18,617 nucleotides of DNA from Candidatus Nanohaloarchaea archaeon (GTDB taxonomy: Archaea; Nanohalarchaeota; Nanosalinia; Nanosalinales; Nanosalinaceae): contig JBDGRK010000026.1 of NCBI GenBank assembly GCA_042218075.1, positions 1-18,617 on the forward strand, given 5' to 3'. Below are positions 8,098 to 13,871 of the stretch, in pieces; position 1 is the stretch's first letter; each line of letters opens with the position of its first letter. Below the pieces are notes generated by a model. That model saw only the letters and a list, made by a program, of their open reading frames with translations. It did not search any database and was not told where the DNA came from. The translations under genes were made by a program, and so were the position numbers.

Positions 8098-11000
8098 ATG
8101 CCAGAGGCTGTCCAGCAGGAAAAAGAGAGGGAAGAGCAGGAACTCGACACCAAGATCAACAAGGTCACCTGCAAGGGTTTCAAGTCTTTCCAGCAGAATA
8201 CCGCGATACCGCTGTTCGAGGGATTGACAGCTATTGTCGGAGAAAACGGTAACGGAAAGTGCGTTACCGGAGATACAGAGGTGCTGACCTCTGATGGAGA
8301 ATACAGACCGATAAGAGAAATCGTAGAGGATTCAATAGAGAGCGATCAGGTAGAGGAGATTGATGATGGGTATCTATCCTATTCTACAGACGTGAAAGTA
8401 GAGAGCCTGAATCCGAGAACTCTGAAATCAGAGGAGAGGGAAGTACTCGCATGTGCCAAGAGGGAGGCTCCAGAAGAATTAAGAGAGATTAAGACGCATT
8501 CAGGCCGAAAGATAAAGGCTACAGACGATCACCCGCTGTTCAAGCTTGTTGATGGCGAAGTAGTTGCAGTTGATTCTTCGGAAGTGGAAGAAGGTGAAAG
8601 AATAGCTGTTCCGAGAAAGCTGAAGGCGGAAAATGGAGGAGAAAAAATATTCACTGAACTCCTGGACATGATTGAGGAAGAAGAAACTCTCTATGTGCCC
8701 TATAGGGAACAGTTCGAGAATCTGATTTACGGTATGAAAGAGGAGAAGGGTGCGACTTGGAAAGAACTTGCCAGTGAAGTAGGTGTCAGTTACAATACTC
8801 TCAGATGTATAAGGGATGAGCAGTCGTGCAGGTTCTCGAGCATTGTCAAGATTCTACGGCATTCGGGAATGAGCGATGAAGAAGTAGCTCAGCAGCTGAA
8901 AACCGTAACATCGAAGACCAGGAGCGAGGAAACCAGGATACCCTGGAAGAATACCCCAGAATTCTCAAGAATGCTGGGTTACCTGCTGGCAGAGGGAAGG
9001 GTAGCTGAGGATTCAGAGCAATTATGGTTTACAAACGGCAACGAGAAAGTTATTCAAGATTATATATCCCTGGTTGATTCCGAATTAGGCGTAGAAGCTG
9101 AAAGAAAGGAATACAATGCAAACTGCTGGGATGTGATTGTTTTCAGAAAGGCCGCAAAGAAGATAATGGAGAAATTTGGACTTAGCGAGGGATCTGGAGC
9201 TAAAGAGATAGCTGAATTTTACAAGAAAAAATCGGGCCAGAAAGAAATAGAGGCTCTACTGGAGGGAATCTTCTCGGGAGATGGAGATGTTTCACACTGT
9301 GCAGCTACTGTAACGACGAAAAGCAGGAAGCTGGCGGAAGATCTCCAGGGTTTGATGCTGAGGATAGGAGTAAACTCCAGGATCAAAGAGAGAGTAAAGA
9401 CAGCCACAAATACAGGAACATCAGGCACATACTATGATCTGAGGGTTTCAGGAAAGGAAGCAGAGAAACTGGCAAACAAATTGAATATACCCATCGAGAG
9501 AAAGCAGAAGGATCTCGAGCAACTCTCCCAGAGAAAGAATAATACCAATATCGACTTGATAGAGGCAAATGGACTGGTCAAGAAAACAGTTGATGATAGC
9601 AATATCAGCCCATATTCCAGATCGCTTAAAGAAGAAGTTCCAAAACTTTCTGCTTACTACAGTGAGAATTCTCTGACAACGAGAGAAGGGCTGAGAGAAG
9701 TTGCAGAGCTATTCTCGGAAGAGGAAACCGAAGAGATAGAACAGATTAGAAAACTCGCAAACTCTGACATCTACTGGGATGAGATAGAAAGTGTAGAAAA
9801 GATAGAAGCTCAAGATGATTGGGTATACGACCTGAATATTGGCGTAGGACACAACTTTGTCGCGAACAATATATTCGTCCACAACAGCAACCTCCTGGAC
9901 GCCATTAGCTTTGTCTTCGGGCGGAGATCAAGCAGTTTGAGAGCCGAGAAGCTCACTCAGCTGATCTTCAACGGTGCAGAGGATCGCAAGGAAGCGGATC
10001 ACGCCAAGGTTGACGTATATCTCGACAACTCTTCAGGGATATTCGACGAGTTCCTGGAAGAGGAAGAAGAGGCAGAAGAAGTGGTTGTATCCAGAAAAGT
10101 AACGAGAGCAGGCAGCTCAATCTACAAGTTCCAGGGCTCGAACTGCAAGAAGGGAAAAATAGATGATATTGCGGAGAAAGCCAACATAGACCCTGATGGA
10201 TTCCACTTCGTGAGGCAGGGAAAGGTGACAGAGATAGTCGAGCAGAGCAACGTCGAGAGGAGAAAGGTAATTGATGAACTTTCAGGAGTCGCGAAGTTCG
10301 ACTCGGAGAAGGAAGAGGCGGAAGAAGAACTTGAGGAGGTCGAGGAAAAGCTCCAGGAGCAGCAGATAAAGCTGAACCAGAAGAAGAGCCACCTTGAAAA
10401 GCTGAAGGAGGAGAAGGAGCTCGCTTTGAAGTACCGGGAGCTGGAGGAGAGGAAAGAGAAGCTGGAGGCCTCCCGGCTCGAGGTTCGGAAGAGAGCGCTC
10501 TCCAACCAGCTCGCCAACATAAATACTGATACAGCGGAGAAGGAGGACAGGATCGAAGAGCTGGAGGAGGAGCTGGAAGAACTCGACGAGGAGATTGAGA
10601 AGAAGCAGGACAGGATTGAGGAGATTGAGGACAAGATGGGTGGAGACTCAGATATTCAGCATCTGGAGACCCGTATAGAGAAGAAGAAGGGGAAGATCGA
10701 GAACAAGCGGGAGAGGATTGAAGAGCTGGAGGAGACGATTGAAGACCTTGAGAAGATGCAGTCGAGGAACAAGACTGGCTCTAAGGCAGTCGACTCCGTT
10801 ATCTCGCTTGGGAAGGATGGCGTACACGGGGCGTTCCAGGACCTGATCTCGGCGGATGAGAGATACGGCGTGGCGATCGAGACAGCGGCTGGAGGCCACA
10901 TGAACGATGTCGTGGTTGAGGATAAGGACGTGGCGATGGAGTGCATAAATTATCTTAAGAGAGAGGGTATCGGAAGAGCGAGGATGCTCCCGCTGGACAA

Positions 11001-12258
11001 GATCAAGGATCGCTCCAAGTCTGCGAAGTCGCAGATGGCGAAGAAAAAGAAGGGAGTAATAGATTACGCGACGGAGCTGGTGAACTACGATGAGCGCTAC
11101 GAGAAAGCTGTAAATCACGTGTTCTCCGACACGCTGATCGCTGAGGACCTGGACTCCGTAAAGAATATCGACGGTGTCCGGGTCGTGACTCTTGATGGTG
11201 ATGTGATGTCGAGAGGAGGATCGATGACCGGAGGAAAGAAGAAGACCAGGAAGAAAAAGAGCAAGAAGTTATCGCAGAACCTGGATCCCGAGAAGAAAAG
11301 AGAGGAGAAAAAGGAGATCGAGGAGGAGATCGAAGACCTCCAAAAGGATATAGCCGAGCTCAAGGAGATGAAGCAGAGGAAAGAGGATGAAGAGGAGAGC
11401 GACGACGAGCTCAGAGAGGAGAAGCAGGAACTGAGAGACCAGCTGAAAGAGATGAGGGAGGAAAGGCAGGAGAAATATTCTGAGAAGCAGAGGCTGGAGA
11501 CAAAGGTCGAGGACTCGGGCTCAAAGAAGGCAAATCTCAAGGCAGAACTTGAAAACGTGAAGGATGATCTCGAGGACTATGATATCGACGAGGATGAGAT
11601 GACGGGACTGGATTCTTCTCCCGAGGACCTGAAGAAAAAGAAGAAGAAAGTGCTGAGGAAGCAGAACTCGATGGGACCGGTCAACATGAGAGCTATAGAA
11701 GAGTACAAGCAGAAGAAGGAAGAGTTCGACGAGTTCAAGCAGAAAGTCTCGGAGGTAAGGCAGGAGAAGCTGGAGATAGAGGACATGATAGAAGAGATCG
11801 ACAGGAAGAAGAGAGAGTGTTTCATGGAGACCCTGGAGCAGATACAGGAGAGCTTCGGAAAGATTTTCGAGCAGCTCTTCGGCGGTGGAAACGCTGAACT
11901 GGTGCTTGAGGAAGACGATATTGAGAAAGGTCTGAAGATCAGGGCCGAACCTCCCGGAAAGGAACCGCACATTATCCAGGCGCTCTCAGGAGGAGAGAAA
12001 ACCCTTACAGCGATCGCATTCGTGTTCGCGATCCTGGAGTACGAGAAGTCGCCTTTCTACATAATGGATGAGATTGATGCGGCGCTGGACAAGAAGAACT
12101 CGAAGAAGCTTTCCGAGTTACTCAAGAATTACGCCAGCGACAACCAGTTCATAGTTATCTCCCACAACGAGATCACCGTGAGACACGCAGAGAGAGCCTA
12201 CGGTGTCTCAATGACGGACGGAGTATCCAAGATGAGAAGCATCGAGCTGGAAGTCTGA
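8098..12258 (+). CDS. smc: Chromosome segregation protein SMC, intein-containing precursor (mature 844 aa)
   Basis: GFKSF, split Walker A GENGNGK/SN, Q-loop FVRQG, hinge GVHG...GIGRARMLPL...VTLDGD...GSMTGG, MGPVN, signature LSGGEK, Walker B YIMDEIDAALD, QFIVISH. Confidence 0.97.
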   Translation: MPEAVQQEKEREEQELDTKINKVTCKGFKSFQQNTAIPLFEGLTAIVGENGNGKCVTGDTEVLTSDGEYRPIREIVEDSIESDQVEEIDDGYLSYSTDVKVESLNPRTLKSEEREVLACAKREAPEELREIKTHSGRKIKATDDHPLFKLVDGEVVAVDSSEVEEGERIAVPRKLKAENGGEKIFTELLDMIEEEETLYVPYREQFENLIYGMKEEKGATWKELASEVGVSYNTLRCIRDEQSCRFSSIVKILRHSGMSDEEVAQQLKTVTSKTRSEETRIPWKNTPEFSRMLGYLLAEGRVAEDSEQLWFTNGNEKVIQDYISLVDSELGVEAERKEYNANCWDVIVFRKAAKKIMEKFGLSEGSGAKEIAEFYKKKSGQKEIEALLEGIFSGDGDVSHCAATVTTKSRKLAEDLQGLMLRIGVNSRIKERVKTATNTGTSGTYYDLRVSGKEAEKLANKLNIPIERKQKDLEQLSQRKNNTNIDLIEANGLVKKTVDDSNISPYSRSLKEEVPKLSAYYSENSLTTREGLREVAELFSEEETEEIEQIRKLANSDIYWDEIESVEKIEAQDDWVYDLNIGVGHNFVANNIFVHNSNLLDAISFVFGRRSSSLRAEKLTQLIFNGAEDRKEADHAKVDVYLDNSSGIFDEFLEEEEEAEEVVVSRKVTRAGSSIYKFQGSNCKKGKIDDIAEKANIDPDGFHFVRQGKVTEIVEQSNVERRKVIDELSGVAKFDSEKEEAEEELEEVEEKLQEQQIKLNQKKSHLEKLKEEKELALKYRELEERKEKLEASRLEVRKRALSNQLANINTDTAEKEDRIEELEEELEELDEEIEKKQDRIEEIEDKMGGDSDIQHLETRIEKKKGKIENKRERIEELEETIEDLEKMQSRNKTGSKAVDSVISLGKDGVHGAFQDLISADERYGVAIETAAGGHMNDVVVEDKDVAMECINYLKREGIGRARMLPLDKIKDRSKSAKSQMAKKKKGVIDYATELVNYDERYEKAVNHVFSDTLIAEDLDSVKNIDGVRVVTLDGDVMSRGGSMTGGKKKTRKKKSKKLSQNLDPEKKREEKKEIEEEIEDLQKDIAELKEMKQRKEDEEESDDELREEKQELRDQLKEMREERQEKYSEKQRLETKVEDSGSKKANLKAELENVKDDLEDYDIDEDEMTGLDSSPEDLKKKKKKVLRKQNSMGPVNMRAIEEYKQKKEEFDEFKQKVSEVRQEKLEIEDMIEEIDRKKRECFMETLEQIQESFGKIFEQLFGGGNAELVLEEDDIEKGLKIRAEPPGKEPHIIQALSGGEKTLTAIAFVFAILEYEKSPFYIMDEIDAALDKKNSKKLSELLKNYASDNQFIVISHNEITVRHAERAYGVSMTDGVSKMRSIELEV
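8260..9885 (+). mobile_element. Intein (542 aa) with LAGLIDADG homing endonuclease and an HTH insertion
   Basis: Starts CVTGD. Block B ATDDHP. LAGLIDADG motifs MLGYLLAEG (8971) and LLEGIFSGDG (9256). HTH TWKELASEVGVSYNTL (8755). Ends VYDL...HNFVANNIFVHN followed by Ser+1. Removal restores GNGKSN. Confidence 0.96.
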
Positions 12259-12582: not shown

Positions 12583-13296
12583 ATGCAAGATTACGAGATA
12601 TCTGAACTCGCGGAGCAGCCGTGGAAAGAGACTCTTGACGTTCTGACCGCGGACATGGATCCCCGGAGTATTGATATTGCTGTTCTCGCGGATCGCTACA
12701 GAAATTATATAGAAGAGCTGGAGAGCTTTAATCTCGAGGTTCCTGCCAGAGCGGTAAGGCTTCTTTCAGCACTCCTGAAGTTCAAGACCCTGGCGATAGC
12801 GGGTGAAGAAGTCAGGGAAGAAGAGGAGCAGGAGAATCCGATGGACTTCGAGGAGGAAGAGCTGGTTGAGGAGGAAGAACTGCCGGAGCTTGAGACTGGT
12901 CCGGAGCTGGAGATGCCGGTCAAGCCTAAGCCGAAAAGACGTATGAGCCTTGACGAGCTGAAAGACGCGCTAGGAGACGCTATGGAGGTCAAGGAGAGGA
13001 GGGAGGAGCGGCAGGAGATGAGGCAGGAAATAGACGATCACCTGGAAGTGGATGAAAAGTCGCTTAACGAGAAGATAAATTCGCTTTTTTCCAGACTGAC
13101 TAATCTTGTGGGAAGCAGCTCGGATAAAGTTGAATTCGACCAGCTAGTCGAGAACCAGGAGAGCGAAGAGCGGATCGAAAAATTCCTTCACGTCCTGCAC
13201 CTGGAGACCGACCAGAAAGTGGAGTGCATCCAGGACGAGTGGCTTGGAGATCTCGAAGTCAGGCCCACAGAGGAACATGAAAAGGTCGCGAATTAG
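12583..13296 (+). CDS. scpA: Segregation and condensation protein A (kleisin)
   Basis: MDPRSIDIAVLADRY, LLSALLKFKT, RRMSLDELKDAL and C-terminal winged helix FLHVLHL...VECIQDEWLGDL. Located downstream of smc. Confidence 0.92.
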   Translation: MQDYEISELAEQPWKETLDVLTADMDPRSIDIAVLADRYRNYIEELESFNLEVPARAVRLLSALLKFKTLAIAGEEVREEEEQENPMDFEEEELVEEEELPELETGPELEMPVKPKPKRRMSLDELKDALGDAMEVKERREERQEMRQEIDDHLEVDEKSLNEKINSLFSRLTNLVGSSSDKVEFDQLVENQESEERIEKFLHVLHLETDQKVECIQDEWLGDLEVRPTEEHEKVAN

Positions 13297-13337: not shown

Positions 13338-13871
13338 ATGGACGAGAAAAAGTCAAGGCTGGAGGCAGCTCTATACCTGGCGGAGGAAGCGGTGGATAAA
13401 GAGGAGATCGCCGATATTCTGGATCTGGGATCTATGGGTTACGTCGATATGCTAATAGAGGAGTTCGAGGAACACCTGGAGGAGGAACACCGGGGACTGG
13501 AGCTTGTGGAGACACCTGAGGGATACGAGCTGAAGGTGAAGAAAGACCACCTTGAACATGTTTCCCAACTGGCACCCCACCAGGATCTCAATAAAGGACA
13601 GTTGAGAACATTAAGCCTGGTCGTCTACAACTCCCCCGTGGAACAGGCGGACATAGTAGAGGTGAGAGGAAACAGGGCTTACCAGCACATCAAGGAGCTT
13701 GTGAACCGCGGATTCGTGTCGAAGGAGAAGGACGGCAGGACCGCGATCTTAGATGTTACAGATCACTTCCTGGATTATTTCGATATTGAGTCGGTGGATG
13801 AGTTCAAGAGGCAGTTCGAGAACGAGCAAAAAGGTAGGGAGGGGGAGCAGGAAGGTATCGAGACATTTTAA
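13338..13871 (+). CDS. scpB: Segregation and condensation protein B (kite)
   Basis: LEAALY, GLELVETPEGYEL, LRTLSLVVYNSPVEQADIVEVRG, HIKELVNRGFV and VTDHFLDYF. Confidence 0.94.
   Translation: MDEKKSRLEAALYLAEEAVDKEEIADILDLGSMGYVDMLIEEFEEHLEEEHRGLELVETPEGYELKVKKDHLEHVSQLAPHQDLNKGQLRTLSLVVYNSPVEQADIVEVRGNRAYQHIKELVNRGFVSKEKDGRTAILDVTDHFLDYFDIESVDEFKRQFENEQKGREGEQEGIETF

Follow-up and report, generated by a model that had tools for sequence, protein, structure and literature searches.

A complete class 1 intein with a nested LAGLIDADG endonuclease in the Walker A motif of a nanohaloarchaeal SMC

The smc gene of this Candidatus Nanohaloarchaea archaeon carries a 542-codon insert in the middle of its P-loop, which raises the question of what the insert is, how it came to occupy this site and whether it serves the cell or only itself. 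The host gene and its neighbours lie as follows in the window, that is, the whole stretch of 18,617 nucleotides that was analysed:

8098..12258, plus strand: SMC precursor ORF, 1386 aa (Pfam SMC_N, 1.3e-33; SMC_hinge, 2.4e-29)
8098..8259, plus strand: SMC N-extein, aa 1-54 (AAA_23 match at aa 22-54)
9886..12258, plus strand: SMC C-extein, stop codon included; its first residue is the Walker A Ser, the +1 nucleophile (9886..9888)
12583..13296, plus strand: scpA (kleisin), 3' of smc (Pfam SMC_ScpA, 7.4e-09; 36.4 bits, cut-off 24.6)
13338..13871, plus strand: scpB (Pfam SMC_ScpB, 1e-38)

The N-extein ends in the Walker A sequence GENGNGK (8239..8259), and the C-extein holds the hinge (10816..11157), the signature motif and Walker B. 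With SMC_N and SMC_hinge above their cut-offs and scpA and scpB downstream, the host is the SMC of SMC-ScpAB, and the smc-scpA-scpB operon is the locus in which the insert resides. The profile TIGR02169 (SMC_prok_A) scores 655.6 bits on this SMC, below its equivalog cut-off of 729.4; the joined exteins amount to only 844 aa. The interrupted protein provides the sole SMC_hinge match in an assembly that is 92% complete, so the cell would have to splice it.

The translated junctions read ...GENGNGK/CVTGDTEVL...NNIFVHN/SNLLDAISFVFG..., which places the insert exactly at 8260..9885, between the Lys and the Ser of Walker A, as the earlier note had proposed. Pfam searches with the insert alone returned Intein_splicing (5.8e-27) and, in two stretches, LAGLIDADG_3 (6.1e-22). 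Its parts are:

8260..9885, plus strand: complete class 1 intein with a nested LAGLIDADG homing endonuclease, 542 aa (precursor aa 55-596)
8260..8619, plus strand: N-terminal portion of the Hint (splicing) domain, about aa 1-120 (modelled strands at aa 7-118)
8707..8895, plus strand: five-helix HTH-like accessory domain, about aa 150-212, with a putative helix-turn-helix, WKELASEVGVSYNTLRCI, at 8758..8811
8956..9489, plus strand: LAGLIDADG endonuclease domain, about aa 233-410 (Pfam LAGLIDADG_3; matches to I-DmoI and I-Tsp061I)
9496..9759, plus strand: second helical region, about aa 413-500, modelled helices that follow the endonuclease and precede the C-terminal splicing part
9769..9885, plus strand: C-terminal splicing part, aa 504-542 (W506-D507, H531-N532-F533, H541-N542)

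All of the splicing signals that the note had listed were located, namely Cys1 (8260..8262), the block B TxxH (T88-D-D-H91, 8521..8532) and the terminal HN (9880..9885) followed by Ser+1 (9886..9888). Together with the Hint fold and the contiguous intein-free orthologues described below, they make this a class 1 intein. Both LAGLIDADG motifs were likewise found, LGYLLAEGR at 8974..9000 and LLEGIFSGDGDV at 9256..9291, and each ends in a catalytic acid (E245 and D341), as in a monomeric two-motif endonuclease. In an alignment of 33 inteins from the same site in archaeal and bacterial SMC proteins, C1, T88, H91, E245, G246, G340, D341, W506, D507, H531, N532, F533, H541 and N542 are invariant, as are N428, N430, D432, Y466 and G477 of the second helical region. 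This region sits where inteins of the PI-PfuI type have what we take to be their DNA-binding 'stirrup'.

An AlphaFold (AF2) model of the intein (pLDDT 92.6, pTM 0.91) found its best PDB match by Foldseek in PI-TkoII (2cw7; E 4.7e-26, TM 0.70/0.71), with the TliVMA intein (7qss) and PI-PfuI (1dq3) among the further top matches. These three share with the SMC intein a Hint domain, a two-motif LAGLIDADG endonuclease and extra helical DNA-binding modules, but they reside in other host genes and are only 14-20% identical in sequence. The XRE-like HTH claimed for the intein was borne out only in part. Folded alone, aa 134-232 form a five-helix bundle (pLDDT 91.2), and when this module, which follows the N-terminal Hint part and precedes the endonuclease, was searched as an isolated domain, the top Foldseek matches were all free-standing proteins of the XRE type (HipB, C.Esp1396I, SinR, XRE regulators and MBF1; probability 0.96-1.00, rmsd 1.8-3.5 A, TMt 0.55-0.70), with E values of 0.015-0.1, so that even the best exceeds 0.001. 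HTH profiles of Pfam stayed below their cut-offs at intein aa 161-186 (HTH_23, E 0.0025, 18 bits against 24.6; HTH_3, E 0.019, 15.4 bits against 23), and PF01381 is absent from the precomputed Pfam domains of all SMC proteins among the best 120 database matches.

The intein-free alleles that the earlier note had suggested looking for proved abundant. Among 40 related genomes, the exteins directly abut in 31, a single genome (G015) carries the intein and eight gave no call; overall, two of the 41 related genomes have the intein, and so does one stray contig of G007. At the DNA level, the uninterrupted K/S junction (K/SN) could be read in 15 of 19 loci. Contigs from a second, independent study span both junctions of the intein without a single difference, and this, with the abutting exteins of the 31 genomes, argues against chance or an assembly artefact. 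The joint of position 8259 to 9886 that would mark an intein-free allele in the same strain occurs in none of the contigs of four runs, which has no bearing on the absence of such an allele, as contigs drop rare variants. We also considered whether G007 holds both alleles in one population, and rejected this, given that the intein-bearing contig (G007:C33) and the contig with the intein-free gene (G007:C28) agree at only 32 of 45 and 42 of 55 positions of the flanking exteins; it is more likely that the former stems from another organism or was mis-binned.

On the scale of protein clusters, the intein occurs in only eight of the 120 closest host clusters and is missing from the other 112. One cluster at 90% identity unites four intein-bearing and seven intein-free full-length SMC proteins, and both alleles occur in a sister species, where the exteins of the intein-bearing P0123 and the intein-free P0124 are 99.3% identical. 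Three genomes of the same genus (G001, G002 and G004) lack the SMC intein, and the source lineage may have gained its copy rather than its genus mates having lost theirs. As to a possible co-conversion tract, nucleotide identity to four relatives drops to its minimum over the opening 40 codons of the C-extein (0.66-0.68), with a similar dip further on (0.67-0.71). The sporadic distribution and the two alleles in the sister species support mobility of the SMC intein. A variant of about 91% identity from a third study retains it, and 24 of the 31 intein differences listed fall on third codon positions (40 of 123 differences are listed overall), a bias that we count in favour of selection acting on the intein in this lineage.

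How unusual the site is can be judged from the database matches to the intein. Of the best 120, 115 are SMC-type (SMC_N) proteins with an intein directly after G..G.GK that begins with C, and the 113 inteins delimited among them measure 532-565 aa; HN terminates every one of them, and the +1 residue is Ser in 111 and Thr in two. Their hosts are DPANN archaea and Omnitrophota: public proteins with an intein in the SMC P-loop bear the names of Nanohaloarchaea, Woesearchaeota, Nanoarchaeota, Pacearchaeota, Micrarchaeota and Omnitrophota. In the databases, several relatives go by 'LAGLIDADG family homing endonuclease' or, generically, 'AAA family ATPase'. Rad50 came under suspicion as a second host, as the hinge is missing from some hosts of about 950-1030 aa and one has a Rad50 zinc-hook Pfam domain; NCBIfam profiles assigned them to SMC (E 1e-143 to 1e-149, against 1e-19 to 1e-26 for Rad50), and Rad50 was dropped. 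In print, we found the family only in one supplementary table, in which Novikova et al. (PMC4760082) give an Smc P-loop intein of Ca. Nanosalina. By their titles and the opening lines of their abstracts, the publications found on inteins of Nanohaloarchaea, Nanosalina and DPANN do not deal with SMC inteins, and further papers searched by passage make no mention of one. The opinion that SMC is not a common host thus had to be given up in view of the 115 matches and of this published entry, and with it, by the measure that the earlier note had itself set, the novelty of the site.

In a phylogenetic tree, all 38 SMC-site inteins are monophyletic (SH-aLRT 100); the source intein is the first to branch within a six-member subclade of nanohaloarchaeal type whose Walker A reads GENGNGK (SH-aLRT 99). 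Shared insertion between Lys and Ser and monophyly make it a member of the SMC P-loop allele family, which it also resembles in length, domain order and invariant splicing and endonuclease residues. It differs from the family in being only 47-52% identical to its nearest members (P0002-P0007), although the exteins are 73-83% identical to those of P0002-P0006 and 61% to that of P0007. Other nanohaloarchaeal pairs combine 77-86% extein identity with 60-66% intein identity, so that the source intein is more diverged than its exteins predict, which could mean that it was acquired from a donor not yet sampled or that it has evolved faster.

These data are very probably those of a genuine and intact intein of the SMC P-loop allele family, a selfish mobile element that is spliced from SMC and homes. 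By this account, smc would be translated as a 1386-aa precursor, from which the Hint domain (Cys1, T88xxH91, H541-N542 and Ser+1) would excise the 542-aa intein and join Lys54 to Ser597, restoring Walker A in an 844-aa SMC that would act with ScpA and ScpB. Until then, it is fair to suppose that the insert in the P-loop blocks ATP binding. The freed intein would be a monomeric two-motif LAGLIDADG endonuclease, aided by the XRE-like helical domain and the second helical region, that cuts the Walker A coding sequence of intein-free smc, whereupon repair would copy the intein in. Autocatalytic splicing is suggested by the intact residues and by the status of this protein as the only hinge-bearing SMC of the assembly; that the endonuclease cuts intein-free smc and homes is suggested, indirectly, by the sporadic distribution and by the two alleles at 99.3% extein identity.

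Splicing might instead be set by salt, redox state, temperature or DNA, making the intein a co-opted switch of SMC-ScpAB activity. The insertion inside the P-loop very probably leaves the precursor dead as an ATPase, the organism comes from salt-lake samples and the intein is acidic (pI 4.82), all of which such a switch would accommodate. For other inteins of P-loop proteins or recombinases, the idea of conditional splicing is well established (PMC11409957, PMC5790916, PMC6195587, PMC5238726). Against this, nothing in the sequence sets this intein apart from an ordinary homing intein or hints at conditional splicing, most relatives do without it, the near-identical strains of the sister species differ only by its presence, as expected of a dispensable parasite, and the conserved endonuclease active site indicates selection for mobility. 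We know of no sequence signature for conditional (salt-dependent) splicing. On balance, we consider co-option as a switch unlikely, and a little less likely still that splicing is conditional, for example on high intracellular salt or on a partner, in a way that ties active SMC-ScpAB to the state of the cell. Under this less likely reading, the 20 inteins of the genome could, if they shared one cue, act as a joint post-translational brake on the cell cycle. Splicing of the element is presumably constitutive.

The earlier note had also read the intein as recently homed, perhaps from another P-loop ATPase, and a recent ectopic jump into smc from such a gene (MCM, RFC, aEF2, VirB11 or XPD), whether in this genome or in a co-resident one, deserves consideration. 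The source genome has 20 inteins that make up 2.8% of its DNA and for the most part interrupt genes of replication, repair, translation and ATPases; seven of the 20 follow the GK of a Walker A or G1 motif. Moreover, the sister of the SMC-site clade is the clade of MCM-a P-loop inteins (SH-aLRT 93, not starred), to which the MCM-1 intein of the source genome itself belongs. Inteins at site a of MCM/CDC21 (haloarchaeal MCM-a and the mini-inteins PhoCDC21-1 and PabCDC21-1; PDB 6rpq, 6rpp) share the Walker A Lys/Ser site, the Hint part of the SMC intein is 36% identical to those of PhoCDC21-1 and PabCDC21-1 over 121-123 columns, and haloarchaeal MCM-a inteins have HTH_3 domains according to precomputed Pfam. 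Their host, in contrast, is an AAA+ helicase and not the ABC-type head of SMC, and identity over whole inteins is only 24-28% across about 58% of the query. The other inteins of the source genome are at most about 33% identical, none of the 19 falls inside the SMC-site clade, and the closest known intein is only 52% identical. As the SMC-site inteins are monophyletic across DPANN archaea and Omnitrophota, any jump must have been ancient, and ancient at most is the link to MCM P-loop inteins.

Base composition does not rescue a recent arrival. The intein is indeed AT-richer than its surroundings (GC 0.440, compared to 0.506 and 0.510 in the exteins; GC3 0.452, compared to 0.699), and the GC profile steps sharply at both extein-intein junctions. 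Yet GC3 lies below that of the respective exteins in all 19 inteins measured in the source genome; low GC3 is therefore a general property of inteins there and gives no date for that of SMC. A recent jump is very improbable. Most improbable of all is a vertically inherited resident with an inactive endonuclease on its way to a mini-intein or to loss, for which the long branch (0.54) of the intein, the most diverged of its subclade, could speak, but which is at odds with the full length, with the retention of every family-invariant residue including both catalytic acids, with the mostly synonymous-type differences from the 91% variant and, as regards simple vertical inheritance, with the intein-free genomes of the same genus.

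The probably selfish intein of this smc gene opens no new mechanism; with it, a large intein allele family that has hardly been described gains one diverged member. The 1386-aa product should be annotated as an intein-containing SMC, and neither as 'LAGLIDADG family homing endonuclease' nor, generically, as 'AAA family ATPase'. As its presence varies between near-identical strains, the allele family could help to trace gene flow among nanohaloarchaea.

The largest ORF of the window encodes an SMC protein (Pfam SMC_N, 1.3e-33; SMC_hinge, 2.4e-29) whose Walker A motif is split by an insert (...GENGNGK / CVTGDTEVL ... NNIFVHN / SNLLDAISFVFG...), with the position and extent that an earlier note had read from the sequence. 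The gene is preceded by one for an aspartyl/asparaginyl-type class II tRNA synthetase and followed by scpA and scpB:

8098..12258, + strand, smc ORF, 1386 aa
8260..9885, + strand, intein, 542 aa (aa 55-596 of the SMC ORF)
12583..13296, + strand, scpA, downstream of smc
13338..13871, + strand, scpB, downstream of smc

Compared alone with Pfam, the insert matched Intein_splicing (5.8e-27) and, in two stretches, LAGLIDADG_3 (6.1e-22), and all the canonical elements were found, those previously noted (C1, TxxH, terminal HN/S and two LAGLIDADG motifs) among them: Cys1 and block B (T88-D-D-H91) on the N-terminal side, the LAGLIDADG motifs LGYLLAEGR and LLEGIFSGDGDV, and, on the C-terminal side, W506-D507, the terminal H541-N542 and the Walker A serine as Ser+1. 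The predicted spliced SMC has 844 aa. In the 92%-complete assembly the smc product of the window is the only SMC_hinge match; a second SMC_N protein (contig C40) has no hinge match. SMC is short throughout the order (about 835-876 aa vs the 1165 positions of the TIGR02169 model), and the 844-aa window extein scores 655.6 bits against that model, under its equivalog cut-off of 729.4, a length and a score that would imply a much shortened coiled coil in this order.

The earlier note had not counted SMC as a common intein host, a view that the database search does not bear out. When the intein part alone was searched against 5.8 billion proteins, 7999 candidates were scored and 716 matched at E <= 0.001; among the best 120, which we examined, 115 were SMC_N proteins with an intein at the same site, Cys coming immediately after G..G.GK close to the N-terminus, three were haloarchaeal MCMs with the intein after GDPGTGK, and two were multi-intein MCM proteins whose insertion site was not found by pattern. 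The 113 SMC-site inteins that could be delimited by pattern (at P0007 and P0022 the pattern for the C-boundary did not work) measure 532-565 aa, with a median of 542; every one has HN as its last two residues, followed by Ser (111) or Thr (2). The source names include Nanohaloarchaea, Woesearchaeota, Nanoarchaeota, Pacearchaeota, Micrarchaeota and bacterial Omnitrophota. Four hosts of the same intein named Pacearchaeota (P0038, P0046, P0049, P0062) have exteins of about 950-1030 aa without a Pfam hinge; they score as SMC, not Rad50, and may represent SMC variants whose hinge is missing or has diverged. In the literature, a full-text search for 'SMC intein' gave no match, and the only mention of the allele found, in the parts consulted of Novikova et al. 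(PMC4760082), is a supplementary entry of a Smc P-loop intein for Ca. Nanosalina. The window intein is a fairly diverged addition to an intein allele family that is already known and widespread.

The earlier note had also proposed recent homing, possibly from another P-loop ATPase, and had remarked on the AT-richness of the insert. The intein is AT-richer than its exteins (GC3 0.452 vs 0.698, changing abruptly at each junction), and GC3 lies below that of the exteins in all 19 measured inteins of the assembly (0.35-0.57 vs 0.55-0.70; the XPD intein was left out), so that low GC3 is a general intein property here and no clock for the SMC intein. The nearest known inteins (P0002-P0005) are 51-52% identical to it, their C-exteins 74-83%; neither observation bears out recent homing. 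In comparisons between the remaining nanohaloarchaeal alleles, intein identity follows extein identity (P0003/P0004, 85.6% for the extein and 65.8% for the intein; P0002/P0003, 77.3% and 60.6%). The window intein departs from this trend against P0004 (extein 83.5%, intein only 52.1%), which fits either acquisition from a nanohaloarchaeal intein lineage outside the sampling or a higher rate of change, and this gap does not show recency.

For the question of origin, 60 inteins were placed in a tree (IQ-TREE quick search under LG+C20, with SH-aLRT as the only support measure): the window intein, 37 SMC-site inteins chosen from the other 112 that were delimited (P0002-P0013 without P0007, then one in four up to P0118, leaving out P0022), 3 haloarchaeal MCM-a inteins and the 19 other inteins of the assembly. 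The 38 SMC-site inteins fall together in a single clade (SH-aLRT 100), which divides into an Omnitrophota-type group (GPNGCGK), a DPANN group (GPNGSGK, 98) and one of nanohaloarchaeal type with 6 rows (GENGNGK, 99), in which the window intein branches first. The sister of the SMC clade is an MCM-a P-loop clade that includes the assembly's own MCM-1 intein (93, not starred); the other 18 inteins of the assembly are all distant, many of them on long branches that render the deeper tree order unsafe. Because the SMC-site inteins form one clade with these others outside it, a recent jump into smc from another ATPase is not supported by the sequences compared; an ancient link between the SMC and MCM P-loop inteins is possible.

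An AlphaFold2 model of the intein, built from an alignment of 33 SMC-site inteins with homologues supplied as full-length proteins, reached a mean pLDDT of 92.6 and a pTM of 0.91. Its top PDB matches are multi-domain archaeal LAGLIDADG inteins, with PI-TkoII (2cw7) the best (E 4.7e-26, TM 0.70/0.71) and the TliVMA intein and PI-PfuI also among them; for the Hint part, identity with two P-loop mini-inteins, PhoCDC21-1 and PabCDC21-1 (6rpq, 6rpp), is 36% across 121-123 columns. In the model the endonuclease domain is flanked by two helical regions (aa about 134-212 and about 413-500), and the previously suggested XRE-like HTH falls in the first. Folded alone, aa 134-232 gave five helices (pLDDT 91.2), and the top Foldseek matches were all XRE-type (HipB, C.Esp1396I, SinR, XRE regulators, MBF1) at probability 0.96-1.00 and rmsd 1.8-3.5 A, yet with E only 0.015-0.1; the Pfam matches of the region were below cut-off (HTH_23, E 0.0025; HTH_3, E 0.019). 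We take the XRE-like HTH domain as probable, not proven. HTH_3 lies above the Pfam cut-off in four other inteins of the assembly, those of eRF1 (L043), MCM (L038), a VirB11-like ATPase (L033) and TopA (L044, which additionally has an ArsR-type HTH_5); such modules are therefore common accessories in this genome, and they seem recurrent in inteins of this lineage.

The 1.10-Mb assembly holds 20 inteins in 15 genes: SMC, RNR, aEF-2, two VirB11-like ATPases, XPD, SufB, Top6B (two inteins, C13:8456-13333), MCM (three, C2:27081-34046), a P-loop protein on C31, MoxR-type AAA (two, C14:30446-34759), RFC, PolC/DP2 (two, C36:135709-142053), eRF1 and TopA. They total 10,414 aa, or 31,242 nt (2.8% of the assembly), and 7 of the 20 directly follow a Walker A or G1 'GK'. 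With 33 Intein_splicing matches the assembly has the most of the 41 related genomes (next, G039 with 20), 14 of which, including same-genus G003 and G004, have no match at E <= 1e-6. The P-loop intein (GLGK/C...HN/T) of the XPD/Rad3-type helicase gene (L034, C15:67390-70752) carries one in-frame TAA that splits the frame into ORFs of 219 and 869 aa; the gene could be a pseudogene, or the TAA could stem from a sequencing error or be a stop codon that is recoded. The 1022-aa ORF on C31 (L039, 4474-7545) has a 605-aa intein after GTGK, and its 418-aa extein matched no Pfam family at E <= 1e-5.

Intein-free smc alleles, which the earlier note had suggested seeking in metagenomes, were found in relatives: the N- and C-extein pieces adjoin in 31 of 40 genomes of the same order, including same-genus G001, G002 and G004, and one (G015) has an intein at the same site. 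The other eight gave no allele call (contig ends truncate the gene in G003 and G013; the listed rows did not include N-pieces for G025 and G029; matches were weak or absent in G034, G036, G037 and G038). At the DNA level the K/S junction was read at 15 of 19 loci and G015 has the intein; the pattern found nothing at three (G002 and the cut G003 and G013). Eight of the 120 host clusters nearest the C-extein have the intein and 112 lack it. In the 90%-identity cluster of P0006 (19 members, 15 listed), 11 of the listed members are full-length, four with the intein (1389 aa) and seven without (847-852 aa); the four inteins are mutually 99.4-99.8% identical, and P0123, with intein, and P0124, without, have exteins 99.3% identical. 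This cluster is the strongest sign in the sequences of ongoing mobility in the SMC-site family. We also considered G007 as a bin with both alleles in one population, since a 2.1-kb contig (L045, C33:1-2100) carries an SMC N-terminus with a 535-aa intein and a second SMC N-terminus (L046, C28:5400-8300) is intein-free, but the flanking exteins are only about 74% identical (32/45 and 42/55 residues) and the C33 contig was probably assigned to the wrong bin or comes from a second population or organism.

The same lineage occurs elsewhere: in a second study (X2), contigs span the two junctions and show 0 differences, and a third study (X4, from a hypersaline lake) contains, besides further intein pieces, a variant whose identity across the N-junction is about 91%, with 67 of 731 nt differing; X1, which may be the source sample, is not independent. 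Among the 40 of 123 X4 differences listed, 24 of the 31 inside the intein are at third codon positions (counted manually from 8098, where the ORF begins), an excess that points to purifying selection on the intein in this lineage. Across 33 sequences from archaea and bacteria, neither the catalytic acids E245 and D341 nor the splicing residues vary.

Since the host is the only hinge-bearing SMC of the assembly, efficient splicing is presumably required in this cell. The earlier idea that splicing regulates SMC is possible by analogy, because conditional splicing is documented for other inteins (in the parts consulted of PMC11409957, PMC5790916, PMC6195587 and PMC5238726), but nothing in this analysis favours it, and the many intein-free relatives indicate that the element is dispensable. 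The window intein is most likely a selfish homing element: the SMC precursor would be translated with the intein inside, the Hint domain would excise it and restore GENGNGK-S, and the freed LAGLIDADG enzyme would cut intein-free smc alleles encountered via DNA exchange.
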